Of a stretch of DNA of 64,000 nt, positions 39,693-47,694 are shown one piece after another; positions within the stretch are counted from its first letter, which is position 1; every line of letters begins with the position of its first letter. Position numbers and translations under genes: made by a program. Source of the stretch: Lachnoclostridium sp. UBA3262 (lineage in GTDB: Bacteria > Bacillota > Clostridia > Lachnospirales > Lachnospiraceae). The stretch lies in contig DEUM01000009.1 of NCBI GenBank assembly GCA_002362575.1, positions 43,639-107,638 on the forward strand, read 5' to 3'. The notes under the pieces were generated by a model. It did not search any database. It had not been told where the DNA came from and was given only the letters and a program-made list of their open reading frames with translations.

Positions 39693-40859
39693 ATGAACAG
39701 ACTTTTTGGCAAAATATTTGGCGGAATCGGCGTGGCAGCATTTGCCGGCAGTCTTTTTATGGTAGGTGATATTCCACAAATGGATGGGATGACACGAACC
39801 GGGGAGTGGTTGCTTCATCAATCCGGTGTTGCTTACCACGATGGACAAGGCGGGGCAGGGGTGCTTGCAGAAGTTCTTGGCGGGCAGCTATATTTTCATG
39901 ACGAGGGACGGCAGAACAATGAGCAGAAGCTCGTTCTGGCAGAAAATAATGGGCAGTTTGATACGGACAGTGCAGGGGACAGGCAGGCAGATATAGAGGA
40001 CAGGGTAATAGGAGATGTCTACAATCAAAAAACAGTAGAAGCGCTCGGGCAGTCCGGTGCGTCCGGCATCCGAAAAAATAATGTCTATGTTGATAAGCTT
40101 CGTAATTCGCTGGATGTCGAGTATTTATGGAAAAAGTTTTATATTATAGATTCCACGACTTCTGTGACGAAGGGAATTTTTGATGTAAAGAAGCTGCTGG
40201 GAGAAGACATGAGGCTGCCGAAAAAAAAGGGAAAAAAACAAATTCTAATTTACCATACACACGGAGGTTCGGAGGCATTTTCTGACAGCCGTTCTGGTAA
40301 AATAGAAGATTCTGTTGTCGGGGTGGGGACGGAACTGACGAAGGAATTAGAAAAGAGAGGCTATGGTGTCTATCATGATAAGCACCGGTATGATTTAATC
40401 AATGGGAGGCTAGAGCGGAGTGTCGCCTATAATAAAGCACTCGATGGAATTCAGGCGGTTCGAAGTGCAAACAGGGATATTGAAGTCATCATTGATTTAC
40501 ACAGGGATTCTGTCGGAAAGGGAAAGCATACCTATACAATGATTAACGGAAAGAGGACGGCAATCGTAATGTTTTTTAATGGGATGAGCCGCACAAGATC
40601 TGGAAAGATAGCGTATTTATATAATCCGAACCTTCAGGGAAATCTGGCGTTCAGCCTACAGATGAAGTGTAAAGCGATGGAATATTACGATGGGTTTACA
40701 AAGCCGATTTATTTGAAAGGATATAGGTACAACCTTCACTTGAAAAAACGTTCTCTGTTGATTGAATTGGGAAATGAAAATAATACGGTTGAGGAGGCAA
40801 AGAATGCGGCAGCTCCATTAGCGGACGTCTTAGATAAGGTTTTGTCCGGACGGGGTTAA
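39693..40859 (+). CDS. spoIIP: Stage II sporulation protein P
   Basis: ILIYHTHGGSEAF, VVGVG..L, IDLHRD, MFFNG, RYNLH and LIELGNENNT motifs; lies downstream of gpr. Confidence 0.92.
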   Translation: MNRLFGKIFGGIGVAAFAGSLFMVGDIPQMDGMTRTGEWLLHQSGVAYHDGQGGAGVLAEVLGGQLYFHDEGRQNNEQKLVLAENNGQFDTDSAGDRQADIEDRVIGDVYNQKTVEALGQSGASGIRKNNVYVDKLRNSLDVEYLWKKFYIIDSTTSVTKGIFDVKKLLGEDMRLPKKKGKKQILIYHTHGGSEAFSDSRSGKIEDSVVGVGTELTKELEKRGYGVYHDKHRYDLINGRLERSVAYNKALDGIQAVRSANRDIEVIIDLHRDSVGKGKHTYTMINGKRTAIVMFFNGMSRTRSGKIAYLYNPNLQGNLAFSLQMKCKAMEYYDGFTKPIYLKGYRYNLHLKKRSLLIELGNENNTVEEAKNAAAPLADVLDKVLSGRG

Positions 40860-41218
40860 TCTTTTTTATTTCCTTTTGCAAAAATATGAGCGGTGTTACA
40901 TATATTATTGAATTGCTCCGGGGACAGCTGATGACAATAGTCAAATAAACGCAGATAGTCGTACTCAAGGATAGAGGCTGGAGAATTGTCGGGACAGTTT
41001 TCGGATTCTCTTGCCAGCCGGCTGATAGATATATTAAGCCCGGTAGCAATTTTGTCAATAGTAGATAGGCGGGAATCCGTTTCTCCGCGTTCAATCTTCC
41101 CGATTGTATTTTTATCACACTCAGTGAGTCCGCTCAGTTCTTCCTGACTGAGCCCGGCAAGTGTTCTGTATTTTCTTACAGAAAGGCCGATATGATGTAA
41201 AAATTCATTTTTTTCCAT
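40856..41218 (-). CDS. XRE-family HTH regulator
   Basis: RTLAGLSQEELS...TIGKIERGETDSRLSTIDKIA. Confidence 0.85.
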   Translation of the reverse strand: MEKNEFLHHIGLSVRKYRTLAGLSQEELSGLTECDKNTIGKIERGETDSRLSTIDKIATGLNISISRLARESENCPDNSPASILEYDYLRLFDYCHQLSPEQFNNICNTAHIFAKGNKKD

Positions 41219-41497
41219 ATTTAATCTCCATTTCATTTTAATCTTTAGTATTGCTTATTTTCTATTTTAAGAGAAATAAGGGATAACTCAACACACTAAA
41301 ATAGTTATCTTTCATAGAGAAAAAACTATTATAATGGCCCGGATTAAAAAATGGGAAAAAAAGTTGGCTGGGAAATCCCCCAAGAAACGGTAAATCGTCG
41401 TTTTGCGCCGAAAAAAGTTGTGTCGCGAGCTTTTCTTTTTCTTGTGGAATTGGTATGATATAGGGGTGGTATACGTTACGAGGAAAGGAGGAGACAT

Positions 41498-41824
41498 ATG
41501 GTATATGTGGAAAACGAGTTAATCGGGAAACGGCTAAAGCAGATACGACGGCAGGCGGGGCTGAATTATACAGATATGGCAGAAGTGCTGGAAATCAGCG
41601 AGGGACATTATCGTAAGTTAGAGCGGGGTGTGTACGGTCTGGATGTCAAAAAGATACTTATGCTGTACACGAAAATGGATGTGGATCCGCTCTATCTTCT
41701 GCTCGGAAAGAGGAGCATGGATTTTCAGTATAATCTGGAAGAAGGTAAGACGGACCGGAACGCATTAGTATGCGAGTTGTTAGATTACTGTAAGCAGCAG
41801 CTGGCAGATACGACGGAGGACTGA
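41498..41824 (+). CDS. XRE-family HTH regulator
   Basis: IGKRLKQIRRQAGL..TDMAEVLEISEGHYRKLERG...VDPLYLLLG. Confidence 0.85.
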   Translation: MVYVENELIGKRLKQIRRQAGLNYTDMAEVLEISEGHYRKLERGVYGLDVKKILMLYTKMDVDPLYLLLGKRSMDFQYNLEEGKTDRNALVCELLDYCKQQLADTTED

Positions 41825-41825
41825 G

Positions 41826-42530
41826 TTGGCGGATATATTAGTTTTTCAGAAACAGGGAGAAAATACAGATAAATTCGAAACAGCGGGGAAGACCGGGCAG
41901 GCAGAACATGTGATGCGTATCGTTACGGAAGAAAAGGGAGCAGAAGAAGCGGTGCAGACAAAAACTTACCGATTTATTCTTATTGATTTGGAGGGGATGG
42001 AGGAGAGCGGAATTGCATTTGCTTTTTTTGTGAGAGGATTAAAGGAGTATCGGATGACTCCTATTTTGTTTTTTGCTAAAGATAAAAAATATGAACAGAT
42101 GGCATTTCATGATATCCATTGTTATGATTATATGGTAAAGCCAATCTGTACGGAGGAAATGCTCCGGATTGTGTATTTGTATCTGACACATTCCCCCAAT
42201 TTGGTGGAGGACAGTCAGATAAGATTTCAGGTATATGGAGAAGACTATATGATTTCGGTTCAGGATATTATATATATGGAAGCGTTGAACCGCAGTGTCT
42301 TTGTACATACGGTAAATTATATTTTGGAGGTTCCCTATATGAAACTGCGTGACTGCGTATCATACGGAGAGGGAGCGTTTCTCCAGTGTCACCGTTCCTA
42401 TATCGTAAACCGGAGATATATACGAAAGATAGATTATGTAAATCATCAGATAGAATTAAAGGATGCAAAAGAGAAAATTTTTATGGGGAGAAAGTATGAA
42501 AGACTGCTCCGGCATAAATTTGACGATTGA
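41826..42530 (+). CDS. LytTR-family response regulator with a degenerate receiver domain
   Basis: LIDL...YDYMVKPI receiver remnant; DIIYMEA...FLQCHRSYIVN LytTR domain. Confidence 0.85.
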   Translation: MADILVFQKQGENTDKFETAGKTGQAEHVMRIVTEEKGAEEAVQTKTYRFILIDLEGMEESGIAFAFFVRGLKEYRMTPILFFAKDKKYEQMAFHDIHCYDYMVKPICTEEMLRIVYLYLTHSPNLVEDSQIRFQVYGEDYMISVQDIIYMEALNRSVFVHTVNYILEVPYMKLRDCVSYGEGAFLQCHRSYIVNRRYIRKIDYVNHQIELKDAKEKIFMGRKYERLLRHKFDD

Positions 42531-42581: not shown

Positions 42582-43235
42582 ATGAAAGATATTTTTTTGA
42601 TACGTCATGGCAGACAGTGCAGTAAGCTTTGCAATGTGGATGTGGAGCTGGATGAGACAGGGTGCAGACAGGCGGAGTTACTAGGCAGGCGGCTGGCATC
42701 CTATGGGCTGGAAAAGCTGTATTCATCTGACTTACTCCGCGCAAGGGAGACAGCGGAAATTATCAATCGGGCACTGGCTGTGCCATATGAGATATTACCG
42801 GATATCCATGAAATTAACTTTGGTTGTTTTACCGGAAAAACAAATGAGGAAATTCGTGAGAGCTATGCCGATTTCCAGATTGAGAGGGCGAAACATACGG
42901 CGGATTTAAAATACCCGGGGGGAGGCGAGTGCGGCACGGACGTAGTAGAGCGTGCAATGCCTCAGCTCAAAAAGCTGTGCGAGAGACCGGAAGACCGTGT
43001 GGGTGTTGTAACTCATGGGGGAGTCATTCGCTCTCTTTGTGCGCATGTTTTACAGACTGGACAAAAGAATAAGCTAAAGTTTGGGATCGACTTAGAAAAT
43101 ACCAGCCTGACGCACCTTATCTATGATAAGGAGAGAGATTTATTCTTTCTGGAACGTTTTAATGATTTTGCTCATCTGGAGGGGAGACCGGAGCTTTTGC
43201 GGAGGGGCTGGAAGACGTCCTTGGAGCGGTGTTGA
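42582..43235 (+). CDS. Histidine phosphatase superfamily protein
   Basis: LIRHG, SSDLLRARETA, EINFG and VVTHGGVIR motifs. Confidence 0.9.
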   Translation: MKDIFLIRHGRQCSKLCNVDVELDETGCRQAELLGRRLASYGLEKLYSSDLLRARETAEIINRALAVPYEILPDIHEINFGCFTGKTNEEIRESYADFQIERAKHTADLKYPGGGECGTDVVERAMPQLKKLCERPEDRVGVVTHGGVIRSLCAHVLQTGQKNKLKFGIDLENTSLTHLIYDKERDLFFLERFNDFAHLEGRPELLRRGWKTSLERC

Positions 43236-43426
43236 TAGTCTCCCCACCTTTACATTGTACGGCAGAACCCTCAAAAGCAAACTCTGGCATGGTAAAAAAA
43301 AGAGAAACTGGCAGTTTTCACACTACCAGTTTTTTTATATGATATAGAAAATGTAAATACAGTTGTAATACAAGCAGCAAAGTAACTTAACAATGTACTA
43401 AAATTTTTACCGAATGGAGGAAGAAG

Positions 43427-43993
43427 ATGAACACAAATATAAAAACAACTGCCCGGAAATCGAGTCTGGGAAAGAGCAGGGAGAATATAACGGAGATGGC
43501 TTTATGCGGTGTATTTACGGCACTTGTCTGCCTGCTTACGATGTATGTTCAGGTACAGATTATCCCGTCAAAGGGAGGTCTTGTTCATATCGGAAATGTG
43601 CCACTCTTTTTTGCCGCCGCCTTTTTTGGGAAAAAAATCGGGGCATTATGCGGTGGACTTGGTATGGCACTGTCTGACCTTTTGACGCCGTGGGCGATTT
43701 ATGCGCCAATCAGTTTCGTCGTTGTCGGGGCAATGGGTTTTGTTTTTGGACTTATTGTAAATAAAAAACCTACGCTTGTACGTCTTGTACTGGCTACCGT
43801 GGCGGCACTGGCAATCAAGCTGGCAGGATATTATATCGGGGAAGTCATACTGTATAGAAGTTTTGCTGTACCGCTTGCTTCAATTCCGGGAAACACTATT
43901 CAGATTGTGACGGGTGCGATTATTGCCATTCCGGTTATTTTAGTTACGAAGGGTGCAATGGCGACGTTCCGAAAGGAGGACGAACATGTATAA
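43427..43993 (+). CDS. ECF transporter S component (PdxU2/HmpT-like)
   Basis: GLVHIGN...FG...GALCGGLGMALSDLL..W..YAPISF; several TM segments. Confidence 0.85.
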   Translation: MNTNIKTTARKSSLGKSRENITEMALCGVFTALVCLLTMYVQVQIIPSKGGLVHIGNVPLFFAAAFFGKKIGALCGGLGMALSDLLTPWAIYAPISFVVVGAMGFVFGLIVNKKPTLVRLVLATVAALAIKLAGYYIGEVILYRSFAVPLASIPGNTIQIVTGAIIAIPVILVTKGAMATFRKEDEHV

Positions 43994-45125
43994 AATGATG
44001 ACACCGGGGCCGACTATGGTGGCGGATTCTGTTATGCAAGCACGGAGCCGTAAGTTTGGGAATCCGGATGTAGACGGTGATTTTTGTGAAGAATATCATC
44101 AGGTCTGCCGTTCACTGGCAGAGCTGTTACATACGGACAATGAAGTGTACATTCTTGGCGGGGAGGGAATCCTTGCGCTGGAAGCTGCCTGCGCCTCTCT
44201 TACGGAGCCGGGAGATAAGGTCCTTGTCATAGATAACGGAATCTTTGGGAAAGGATTTGCTGACTTTGTAACGATATATGGCGGGTGTCCGGAGCTTTAT
44301 ACCGTAGATTACCATAAGCCGGTAGAGGTGGATGAACTGCGCCGTTTTCTGGAGAAGCATCACGATTATAAATATGCTACGGTCGTACATTGTGATACGC
44401 CTAGCGGTGTGCTGAATGATATCCGCTCCATATGTCCTTTGCTCAAGGAATATGGAATATTGACTGTAGTGGATTCTGTGGCGGCAATGTTTGGTGAGGA
44501 GGTTCGTGTCGACGACTGGGAAATTGATGTGATATGCGGCGGCTCACAGAAAGCATTGTCAGCGCCGCCGGGACTTGCCTTTGTGACGGTCAGTGAAGCT
44601 GCCATGCAGGCAATGGAACAGAGAAAACAGCCGATTGCATCCTTTTACTGCAATCTTCTTACCTTTAAAAATTATTACCGGGATAAATGGTTTCCATATA
44701 CAATGCCAATCAGCGATATATATGGACTGGCAGAAGCGGTGCGTTTAGTGAGAGAGGATAAAAATCGAATCGAAAGGCATCAGAGAATCGCGGCGGCGGT
44801 CAGGGAAACCATGAAAAAGGCAGGGTTATCACTGTATCTAGAATACGGGGATGCGGCTACCGTAACGGTAATCCGTGTTCCGTCCGGTATAAGAGATACG
44901 GAAATTATAGAGACAATGAAAGAAAAATACGGCATACTCATATCCGGAAGTTTCGATGTGCTGGCGGGGAAGGTGATTCGGCTTGGGCACATGGGGAATA
45001 ATGCAAAGGTAGAAGATGTTGCAGATATGCTTTCTGCACTGACAAAAACCTTGAATGAACTTGGATTTGTTTGTCAGTGTGAAATGGGGCATATGTTTCA
45101 AAGTCAGTATAGTACTCAAGAATAA
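43986..45125 (+). CDS. Class V aminotransferase (AGT / pyridoxamine-pyruvate aminotransferase-like)
   Basis: MTPGPT, VHCDTPSG, VDSV, GSQKALSAPPG (catalytic Lys) and IRLGHMG motifs; overlaps the ECF gene stop. Confidence 0.85.
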   Translation: MYKMMTPGPTMVADSVMQARSRKFGNPDVDGDFCEEYHQVCRSLAELLHTDNEVYILGGEGILALEAACASLTEPGDKVLVIDNGIFGKGFADFVTIYGGCPELYTVDYHKPVEVDELRRFLEKHHDYKYATVVHCDTPSGVLNDIRSICPLLKEYGILTVVDSVAAMFGEEVRVDDWEIDVICGGSQKALSAPPGLAFVTVSEAAMQAMEQRKQPIASFYCNLLTFKNYYRDKWFPYTMPISDIYGLAEAVRLVREDKNRIERHQRIAAAVRETMKKAGLSLYLEYGDAATVTVIRVPSGIRDTEIIETMKEKYGILISGSFDVLAGKVIRLGHMGNNAKVEDVADMLSALTKTLNELGFVCQCEMGHMFQSQYSTQE

Positions 45126-45252
45126 AAAACTGAAAATCCCGCAACTTTACTTTGACCTGCCAATATGATACACTGTTTCCATATTGCGGTATTCAGGACG
45201 AGCGTTAGAAAGGAGTTAAGGTGATATGCCGGATAGTGATAAAAGGAGTACC

Positions 45253-47694
45253 ATGCGGAAAGATTTTAAACAACTTTTGAATAAAGGTTTTGTGATTCTT
45301 GATGGGGCAACCGGTTCAAACCTGCAGAGGGCGGGAATGAAAAGTGGAGAATGTCCGGAGCAGTGGATTGTAGAACACCCGGATATTTTCATTGAATTAC
45401 AGAAAAAATATATAGAAGCAGGTTCCGATGTGCTATACACACCTACGTTTACCTGTAACCGGATAAAGTTGGAGGAATATGGTCTGGCAGACAGGCAGGC
45501 AGAGTTGACGAGAAAACTTGTCGGGTTGACAAAGGAAGCGATTCGTGAGAGTAATACGGAGCGGAACATTTATATCGCCGGAGATATTTCTATGACAGGA
45601 CAGCAGTTAGAACCAGTGGGAAGCCTGCCATTTGAAGCGCTCGTTGATATATATAAAGAACAAGTCAGTCTGCTTGCGAAGGAGGGCGTGGATGTTTTTG
45701 CAATTGAAACGATGATGAGCCTTCAGGAATGTCGTGCGGCTTTGCTGGCGGTTAAGGAAACCTGCGATATTCCGGCTATGGTAACTCTGACTTATCAGGA
45801 GGATGGACGTACTTTGTATGGAACGAACCCGGAAACGGCAGTCGTTGTTTTACAGGCAATGGGTGCGGCGGCCGTCGGGATTAACTGTTCGACGGGGCCG
45901 AATCAGATGACAGAGGCGGTAAAGAAAATGGCAGAGTACGCATCCGTGCCGATTGTTGTCAAGCCAAATGCAGGGCTGCCAACACTGGTAGACGGTGTGA
46001 CCTGCTACGATATGAAGGCAAAGGAATTTGCTGATTCCATGACAGAACTGATTCAGGCAGGGGCAACTGTGCTGGGTGGCTGCTGTGGCACGACGCCGGA
46101 GCATATACGAAAACTTTCAGAGGCGGTTTCCGGATGTCCGGTGCCAAAGAGGGAGAAAAAGAGTATCCGGGTACTGACAACGGAGAGAAACATTACCCCG
46201 ATTTCTCTAGATGGCAATTTCATGATTGTCGGGGAGCGCATTAACCCGACTGGGAAAAAGGCGCTGCAGGAGGAATTAAAAGCGGGCAGTCTGGATATGG
46301 TAACGGACATGGCGGAGGAGCAGGCCGCATGTGGTGCAAAGGTACTGGACGTCAATATGGGGATGAATGGCATTGACGAAAAAGAGATGATGAAAAAAGT
46401 GGTAGACGAACTGACAATGACAGTAGATTTACCGCTCAGCATCGATTCCAGTTATGTCGAGGTTGTGGAGAGCGCCCTGCGCATTTATCCGGGGCGGGCC
46501 CTTATCAATTCGATTTCGTTAGAAAAGGATAAGTTCGAGAAGCTGATTCCGGTGGCAAAGAAATATGGGGCAATGTTTATTCTGCTTCCGCTGTCTGGCG
46601 AAGGGCTTCCAAAAAATATAGAAGAAAAAAAGAAGATTATTCATACGATACTGGCAGAGGCAAAACGGCAGGGATTGTCAGAGGAGGATGTGATCGTAGA
46701 CGGACTGGTGGCGACGATTGGAGCAGATAAGAGAGCGGCGCTGGAAGTGATGGAGACGATACGGTACTGTAAAAATGAACTGCATGTAGCGACGATATGC
46801 GGTCTGTCAAATATTTCCTTCGGACTGCCGGAGCGTGCTTTTGTCAACACTGCCTTTCTGACGCTGGCAATCGGGGAAGGACTGACTATGGCAATTGCCA
46901 ATCCGTCACAGACACTTCTGACAAATGCGGCGCTTGCAGCGGATTTGTTGTTGAATAAACAGGAGGCCGATATCCGGTATATAAACGGAGTGTCTCCGGC
47001 AACTCTGACACAGGCACAGCCGAAACAGGGGGAGGGAAAAGCAGGGACAGAAGCAGAAGGACATCCTCTTTATATGGCGGTCGTGAAGGGAAAGAGCGGA
47101 CATGTTCTGGAACTTGTGGAAAAGGAGTTAGCGCAGGGGGCAAAGCCGGCAGAGCTGATTGATACACATATGATTCCGGCTATCAACTACGTGGGGGAAC
47201 TGTTTGAACAGAAAAAATATTTTCTGCCACAGCTCATTGCCAGTGCGGAGACAATGGAAAAGGCAATCACACGTCTGGAACCGCTTCTCGAGGCAGAAAG
47301 AGGGAATGAAAAGCTGGATACCGTTATCATGGCTACGGTGAAAGGGGATATCCATGATATTGGAAAGAATCTTGTCGTACTGATGTTAAAAAACTATGGC
47401 TATGATGTCATTGACTTAGGAAAAGATGTGGAGGCGCAGGATATTCTGGATGAGGCAAAGAGGACAAAGGCTGCTGTAATTGGACTATCCGCCCTGATGA
47501 CGACAACGATGATGGAGATGAAGCAGGTGATTGATATGGCAAAGGAACAGGGTGTGGAGTCAAAAATTATTGTCGGCGGCGCCGTTGTGACAGAGAGCTT
47601 TGCAGAGGAAATTGGAGCAGATGGGTACTCGTCGGATGCCAGAGAGGCAGTGAAGTTAGTCAACCGCCTATTGCACAATGAAAGGAATCAGTGA
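45253..47694 (+). CDS. metH: Cobalamin-dependent methionine synthase (Hcy-, pterin- and B12-binding domains; no reactivation domain)
   Basis: ILDGATG, GINCS, GGCCGTTP, VGERINPTGKK, SIDS, GLSNISFG and GDIHDIGKN motifs; ends at GADGYSSDA. Confidence 0.88.
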   Translation: MRKDFKQLLNKGFVILDGATGSNLQRAGMKSGECPEQWIVEHPDIFIELQKKYIEAGSDVLYTPTFTCNRIKLEEYGLADRQAELTRKLVGLTKEAIRESNTERNIYIAGDISMTGQQLEPVGSLPFEALVDIYKEQVSLLAKEGVDVFAIETMMSLQECRAALLAVKETCDIPAMVTLTYQEDGRTLYGTNPETAVVVLQAMGAAAVGINCSTGPNQMTEAVKKMAEYASVPIVVKPNAGLPTLVDGVTCYDMKAKEFADSMTELIQAGATVLGGCCGTTPEHIRKLSEAVSGCPVPKREKKSIRVLTTERNITPISLDGNFMIVGERINPTGKKALQEELKAGSLDMVTDMAEEQAACGAKVLDVNMGMNGIDEKEMMKKVVDELTMTVDLPLSIDSSYVEVVESALRIYPGRALINSISLEKDKFEKLIPVAKKYGAMFILLPLSGEGLPKNIEEKKKIIHTILAEAKRQGLSEEDVIVDGLVATIGADKRAALEVMETIRYCKNELHVATICGLSNISFGLPERAFVNTAFLTLAIGEGLTMAIANPSQTLLTNAALAADLLLNKQEADIRYINGVSPATLTQAQPKQGEGKAGTEAEGHPLYMAVVKGKSGHVLELVEKELAQGAKPAELIDTHMIPAINYVGELFEQKKYFLPQLIASAETMEKAITRLEPLLEAERGNEKLDTVIMATVKGDIHDIGKNLVVLMLKNYGYDVIDLGKDVEAQDILDEAKRTKAAVIGLSALMTTTMMEMKQVIDMAKEQGVESKIIVGGAVVTESFAEEIGADGYSSDAREAVKLVNRLLHNERNQ

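Follow-up and report, generated by a model that had tools for sequence, protein, structure and literature searches.

Two overlapping genes in the genome of Lachnoclostridium sp. UBA3262, one encoding the S component of an ECF transporter and the other a class V aminotransferase, raise the question of whether they form a unit for vitamin B6 salvage, as proposed in a preliminary description of this DNA. The unit has been analyzed in the window (the whole stretch of 64,000 nucleotides from contig DEUM01000009.1, to which all positions refer), in the host genome (2.67 Mb, 99.97% complete) and in its relatives, which carry the labels Lachnospiraceae, Eubacterium or Clostridium. The operon is almost certainly linked to vitamin B6, and its function would be, with a probability of about 0.6, the PdxR-induced uptake of pyridoxamine and its PLP-independent conversion into pyridoxal for salvage. 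The host had been taken for a gut anaerobe, in agreement with the presence of the stretch carrying the gene pair in rat gut sequencing runs. The features of the unit are the following:

43284-43289, plus strand: predicted PdxR operator box 1 (CTGGCA, direct repeat), outside the hairpin
43294-43307, plus strand: A-rich spacer between boxes 1 and 2, which have a 24-bp period
43305-43332, no strand assigned: terminator-like inverted repeat of boxes 2 and 3
43308-43313, plus strand: predicted PdxR operator box 2 (CTGGCA, direct repeat), immediately upstream of the -35 element
43315-43343, plus strand: predicted sigma-70 promoter (-35 TTTTCA at 43315-43320, 17 nt, -10 TATGAT at 43338-43343)
43324-43329, minus strand: predicted PdxR operator box 3, inverted (CTGGTA; taccag on the plus strand)
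43427-43993, plus strand: ECF S component, PF07155 (PdxU-type), aminotransferase-linked subfamily, 188 aa (ATG at 43427, TAA ending at 43993)
43974-43979, plus strand: ribosome-binding site AGGAGG of the aminotransferase, located in the last part of the S-component gene (translational coupling)
43986-45125, plus strand: fold-type I aminotransferase of class V whose Glu60 is PPAT-like, 379 aa (ATG at 43986)
44157-44201, plus strand: motif GGEGILALEAACASL, aminotransferase residues 58-72 (Glu60 codon at 44163-44165, equivalent to PPAT Glu68)
44550-44552: codon of the catalytic K189 of the aminotransferase, found together with D163, T138 and R332

The 8-bp overlap of the two open reading frames (ATGTATAA) was confirmed. 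A histidine phosphatase gene lies upstream (42582-43235; PF00300, CobC-like below the cut-off) and was rejected as a member of the unit, as it precedes the operator and is syntenic in only about 20 close relatives. A methionine-synthase-like open reading frame (45226-47694, 822 aa), located 100 bp downstream of the aminotransferase gene, is also syntenic in about 20 close relatives and apparently lacks the reactivation domain, as judged from its sequence alone. Farther upstream, close relatives also retain the region 40856-42530, where two divergent regulators of the XRE type precede a LytTR protein whose receiver domain is degenerate.

Two copies of ctggca (43284 and 43308) and an inverted ctggta (43324) had been recognized as a layout typical of MocR/PdxR sites that could also be read as a terminator. 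The positions are correct, the hairpin at 43305-43332 does score as a terminator, and the regulatory layout is conserved, unique in the genome and also found ahead of pdxS and kinase genes. An operator matrix trained on the relatives' aminotransferase loci only, with the window left out, gave 62.8 bits for the window site, which is the sole site above 20 bits in 5.34 million genome positions and therefore not a chance match. The same matrix finds sites upstream of pdxS in L120 (43.6 bits), L125 (24.9 bits) and L122 (19.0 bits), although scores above 14 bits were obtained in only 3 of 10 pdxS loci, and upstream of pyridoxamine-kinase operons in L134 (29.2 bits), L136 (24.2 bits), L178 (34.6 bits), L182 (33.1 bits) and L184 (44.0 bits). 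As the operator is common to pdxS, it implies salvage and not degradation. Among 82 sites selected with the matrix, the C, T and G of box 1 are kept in 91-100%; of 80 related loci, 20 have the strict form CTGG-N20-CTGG-N14-CCAG upstream, and many more have degenerate forms with equal spacing. The sigma-70 match overlaps the boxes and the hairpin and agrees at 9 of 12 positions, which alone is no better than chance; its -10 positions are conserved among the matrix-selected sites, and the register of the -35 and -10 elements to the boxes equals that of the pdxS site in L120. Contigs of RNA sequencing runs were of low depth, some of them perhaps derived from DNA, and gave no evidence of transcription or co-transcription. 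In one related locus, L156 (G383:C2:1-7500), the operator occurs twice at a distance of 1.4 kb, ahead of an S-aminotransferase pair and ahead of another S-component paralogue, which belongs to a different subfamily.

According to an alternative without any role of vitamin B6, the repeats would be an intrinsic terminator and the pair would salvage a piece of another vitamin, such as the thiamine pyrimidine. Its basis is the terminator score, the original assignment of HmpT to HMP and a distant Glu-type member found two genes from a ThiD-ThiN gene. A terminator alone is inadequate, however, because box 1 lies outside the hairpin, the 24-bp period is fixed and the motif is kept where the upstream gene is divergent; furthermore, conservation of the T-tail of the hairpin is low, pdxS and B6 kinase genes have the motif in front of them, and neither a TPP riboswitch nor any other was found in the Rfam scan. 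This explanation is thus considered very improbable. The folding of the leader is not unusual (z = -0.88), and in this lineage the hairpin may also terminate the transcript of the upstream phosphatase gene. The ThiD-ThiN fusion mentioned above belongs to L220 (enzyme P0153), an archaeal-looking contig, and its proximity may be due to chance.

The PdxR homolog that an operator of the PdxR type calls for is present in the genome (NF052282, 532.7 bits versus a cut-off of 320) as the only long GntR-family open reading frame found, encoded on contig C4 and not on that of the operon. The known PdxR regulons (B. clausii pdxST; Clostridia-3 pdxU, pdxK and pdxST; streptococcal pdxKU) show the same arrangement of repeats, two direct and one inverted, and likewise an A-rich spacer, promoter overlap and PdxR encoded in the genome. 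In B. clausii, apo-PdxR is the activator and PLP acts as anti-activator (PMC10450172, PMC5320631), and recognition involves a bent A/T-rich tract (PMC10450172). By analogy with B. clausii, PdxR would bind this operator and regulate it in the same direction. Unlike the regulons compared, the operon holds the sole operator found in this genome, and its regulator is on another contig. The Clostridia-3 PdxR rows of Suvorova and Rodionov contain PdxU, PdxK and PdxS/T only, and no COG75/COG0075, serine-pyruvate or class V entries were found in their supplement.

The S component scores 112.7 bits against PF07155 (gathering threshold 26.7), and HmpT/PdxU2 of L. brevis (4HZU) is its sole PDB relative below E 0.1 (4e-11). 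Both HmpT and the predicted PdxU (COG4720) belong to this Pfam family and are, like the S component of the window, solitary group II S components with a PdxR-type operator. The resemblance to PdxU2/HmpT that had been suggested holds at this level and only partly in the pocket, where 3 of the 6 conserved HmpT residues (E41, H84, Q87, Y120, N140, Q143) are kept, with Glu41, His84 and Gln87 replaced by Asn57, Val100 and Met103. HmpT Y120, S136, N140 and Q143 correspond to Y135, S152, N156 and Q159, and the aminotransferase-linked subfamily has its own set of invariant residues (H54, N57, D84, W89, K131, Y135, E139, N156 and Q159), of which H54, N57, K131 and E139 set it apart from HmpT and PdxU. 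The label 'PdxU2/HmpT' is too specific, and 'PdxU-type, aminotransferase-linked' is justified. The genome has one EcfAA'T module.

HmpT binds pyridoxamine (PMC4860826), which would be the most likely substrate here too, whereas the invariant Lys131 in the pocket does not favour a cationic amine ligand. When the window protein (43427-43993) was compared with PdxU-type S components of L130, L134, L139-L141 and L178-L184, the basic pocket residue was seen to alternate between position 100 (Lys/Arg, the site of HmpT His84) and position 131 (Lys), with no sequence compared having both. Lys131 was rejected as a PMP-specific signature because other S subfamilies have Lys/Arg at position 100 instead.

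A pocket unlike that of HmpT, with its Lys131, is also compatible with another vitamer or another direction of the reaction: pyridoxal or a B6-amino-acid adduct would be imported, and the enzyme would make pyridoxamine or free the vitamer for the available kinase. PPAT-type reactions are reversible (PMC9309667), the kinase adjoining the pair in some loci is named pyridoxamine kinase, and vitamer-adduct uptake has been raised as a possibility (PMC9997740). Nevertheless, the nearest characterized S component prefers pyridoxamine. Moreover, pyridoxal leads directly to PLP when pdxH is missing, and a reaction towards pyridoxamine adds a step. This variant appears quite improbable.

Concerning the second gene, its product belongs to PF00266 (class V, Pfam) and is annotated publicly in the alanine--glyoxylate aminotransferase family. 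For the pyridoxamine-pyruvate aminotransferase (PPAT) of Mesorhizobium, the preliminary description had given the motif GEPVLGLEAAAASL. The sequence of PDB 2z9u does contain it, and in the alignment it is in register with the motif of the aminotransferase in the window, Glu60 falling on PPAT Glu68. Glu68 reportedly blocks the PLP phosphate, a finding attributed to Yoshikane (2008). Residues G59-E60-G61-I62-L63 are invariant in 80 of 80 aminotransferase relatives. The numbering of PPAT was anchored on K197 and D171, Lys197 being the Schiff base residue and Asp171 that of the ring nitrogen (PMC9309667). Their equivalents here, K189 and D163, are common to all class V enzymes and so not diagnostic. 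Two arginines of PPAT, Arg336 and Arg345, bind carboxylate groups; Arg345 is kept as R332, and Arg336 is replaced by Phe323, nearly invariant in the aminotransferase family.

In a single-sequence search the best PDB match was M. loti PPAT (2z9u, 162.9 bits) followed by the AGT 1vjo (158.7 bits), and the best NCBIfam model was that of PPAT (EC 2.6.1.30; NF046070), with 245.6 bits, below its equivalog cut-off of 600. Both enzymes have the class V fold and share the signatures GE-x-[IV]L-x-LEAA, GKGF, DTPSG and FP[FY]T, together with the pairs E68/E60, K197/K189, D171/D163, T146/T138 and the second arginine (R345/R332). In contrast, identity to the annotated Rhizobium PPAT is about 30% (113/378), and Pro69, Asn196, Tyr95 and Arg336 of M. 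loti PPAT are Gly61, Gln188, Phe87 and Phe323 here. With Gly61, Gln188 and Phe323 in place of Pro69, Asn196 and Arg336, the keto-acid site is different, and two phosphate contacts of the AGT kind may be retained. PPAT is known from B6 catabolism, and the annotated Rhizobium enzyme is encoded beside a lactonase and oxidoreductases, whereas the aminotransferase of the window is found with an ECF S component in a putative PdxR salvage operon.

When the tree was built without the motif columns, the aminotransferase fell among 29 Glu-type sequences that form a supported clade, and PPAT into a different Glu-type clade, which has 8 sequences. The union of both clades was not rejected (p-AU 0.496), and FastTree with these columns included united the two (0.96). 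The AlphaFold model (pLDDT 97.3) ties the ureidoglycine aminotransferase PucG (Z 52.0) and PPAT (Z 51.2) in the fold search, which was discarded as a discriminator as PPAT could not be separated from AGT/PucG. A profile search preferring PPAT (374 versus 310 bits) was discounted as biased, because alignment A1 includes seven PPAT-side members. The PPAT-type assignment made previously thus stands for the Glu68 equivalent and falls short in the NF046070 cut-off, the separate clade of the tree without the motif columns and the missing Arg336. With about 30% identity, the failed cut-off and a separate clade in that tree on one side and the same key residues on the other, the sequence indicates that the enzyme probably works like PPAT and falls outside the PPAT family.

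Among these same data, some would fit a B6-regulated operon whose enzyme is an ordinary PLP-dependent AGT or serine-pyruvate type, or a protein buffering PLP/PMP within the PdxR regulon. The public annotation, a fold equally near AGT and PucG, and a GSQK motif as in AGT agree with this proposal, as do the inclusion of PLP-dependent aminotransferases of other families in PdxR regulons (PMC5320631) and the Glu-type orthologues of cultured C. sporogenes, C. botulinum and C. estertheticum, which adjoin no S component or B6 gene. However, Glu60 is kept in all 80 relatives, and the AGT hallmarks, i.e. the G-S/T-G-T/H/S phosphate-binding turn and the Y-H-H-T loop, are replaced by GEGI and FPYT, with Ile62 and Phe236 at the positions where AGTs have their phosphate ligands T/H and Y. 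Same-class Ser/Thr-type enzymes are found in other clades and with other neighbours (L209-L214), and there would be little reason to induce a PLP consumer at PLP shortage and to tie it to an S component of its own. An ordinary AGT is rather improbable.

The class V enzymes of the L209-L214 loci, from other Clostridia, are of the ordinary Ser/Thr type (SGTGGMEAA), in contrast to the Glu-type context, and the class V gene is followed there by a gene of about 480 aa resembling phosphoglycerate dehydrogenase, as judged from its N-terminus. Another Glu-type member (P0124; 46% identity, CGEALVGLE), located on metagenome contigs (L112-L114:5001-6113), is flanked by intron-less eukaryotic-type genes (nucleoporin, RRM, WD40) and nests among bacterial sequences in the tree, so a transfer into a gut protist is possible.

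The association of both genes extends beyond this genome. The S gene immediately precedes the aminotransferase gene in 53 of 80 loci, the flanks of which differ, and it adjoins even a 38%-identical aminotransferase with the same 8-bp overlap. Among 201 genomes of the family, the enzyme is present in 23 (about 11%) and this S subfamily in 19, and all 19 S genes adjoin the enzyme gene; the S subfamily thus depends one-way on the enzyme. Kinase-linked S components, by contrast, belong to other subfamilies (28-38% identity). The pair recurs in several further families of Clostridia, and 17 of 300 Clostridia genomes carry the enzyme at 41% identity or more. In five loci (L001, L005, L017, L019 and L020) the enzyme gene lies directly behind the operator without an S gene. 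Other B6 genes also accompany the pair: pdxR is divergent from it in L150-L152, a pyridoxamine kinase gene (above the cut-off) is divergent from it in L048, L050, L063, L071 and L078 and from the enzyme gene alone in L137, and S component, aminotransferase and pdxS form one gene run in G321/L167.

The host itself needs B6 salvage, since pdxS, pdxJ and pdxH were not found in this 99.97% complete genome. No B6 kinase was found either, only a canonical ThiD on contig C7, and a literature search on the pyridoxal-kinase activity of ThiD found nothing. Within the family, the PRK07105 kinase is present in 11 of 23 enzyme carriers versus 137 of 178 non-carriers (Fisher p ~0.005, with related genomes that are not independent); this genome is among the 12 carriers lacking it, compared with 41 non-carriers. 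A strict mutual exclusion between enzyme and B6 kinase, hinted at by the order-level sample, was discarded as it fails in those 11 carriers, and the presence of pdxS showed no link to the enzyme in the family (5/23 carriers versus 49/178; p 0.63).

Near-complete genomes without full-length ThiD or recognizable B6 kinase are G263, G264, G272, G286, G300, G323, G128, G156, G203, G230 and G026, and pdxS is also missing in at least the last five. Only G203, G230 and G026 have the enzyme, and no pdxJ was found in them. The gap is shared by the eight genomes without the enzyme, so that it is a general hole, and it points to an unfamiliar kinase or to PLP/PMP uptake in the order. In previous work, genomes with a B6 kinase and no pdxH have been assumed to salvage pyridoxal only, and several hundred had no predicted route at all (PMC9997740).

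The gap in carriers such as G203, G230 and G026 keeps alive a bypass of the kinase, in which the S component would import PMP and the enzyme would be a PMP:2-oxo-acid transaminase yielding PLP directly, so that its family would supply the gene for the orphan activity EC 2.6.1.54. This activity, described in Clostridium kainantoi (PMC9309667), is likewise a PLP-independent vitamer transaminase of an anaerobic clostridium, although it uses PMP and 2-oxoglutarate and was compared here by description only; the enzyme family is found in cultured Clostridium species. The lower frequency of PRK07105 in carriers, the AGT-like phosphate contacts kept by Gly61 and Gln188 and the Lys of the S pocket would be in line with the bypass. 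On the other hand, the invariant acidic residue at the phosphate position, with Ile62 and Phe236 in place of the AGT ligands, argues against PMP, in six loci the kinase gene is a divergent neighbour sharing the operator region, the kinase gap also affects enzyme-less genomes, and a pocket Lys/Arg occurs in kinase-linked S components too. Direct formation of PLP from PMP is therefore regarded as unlikely. If it were true, the widespread Glu-type clade, together with the S component dedicated to it, would be a kinase- and oxidase-independent PLP route in anaerobes, EC 2.6.1.54 would gain a gene, and part of the B6 salvage hole would be filled in gut Firmicutes without pdxK, pdxH and pdxST.

In the preferred reading, PdxR-controlled salvage of pyridoxamine, apo-PdxR would bind the boxes at low PLP and activate the overlapping promoter, and PLP-bound PdxR would switch it off. 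The S component would borrow the single EcfAA'T module and import a B6 vitamer in unphosphorylated form, pyridoxamine being the most likely one. Glu60 is proposed to fill the phosphate pocket, so free pyridoxamine/pyridoxal would be the substrate, forming a Schiff base at Lys189 before being released; the amino group would pass to a small 2-oxo acid, probably pyruvate, yielding pyridoxal without oxygen. The PRK07105 kinase, where present, would phosphorylate pyridoxal, and here ThiD or an unfamiliar kinase would be required. This kinase step, unexplained in this genome, is the weak point of the scheme.

Every part of the unit has a known relative, and no paper on the Glu-type aminotransferase clade was found in the literature search. 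The present analysis adds the test of the operator against pdxS and pdxK promoters, the clade structure, the kinase gap and the one-way dependence described above. If the preferred reading is true, the generic 'alanine-glyoxylate aminotransferase' label would be corrected on thousands of proteins (7309 matches at E <= 1e-20 among 8000 scored, only part of which belong to the Glu-type clade), PPAT-type chemistry would move from catabolism into cofactor supply, and an oxygen-independent vitamer transaminase in the PdxR regulon would be a missing salvage step of gut anaerobes.
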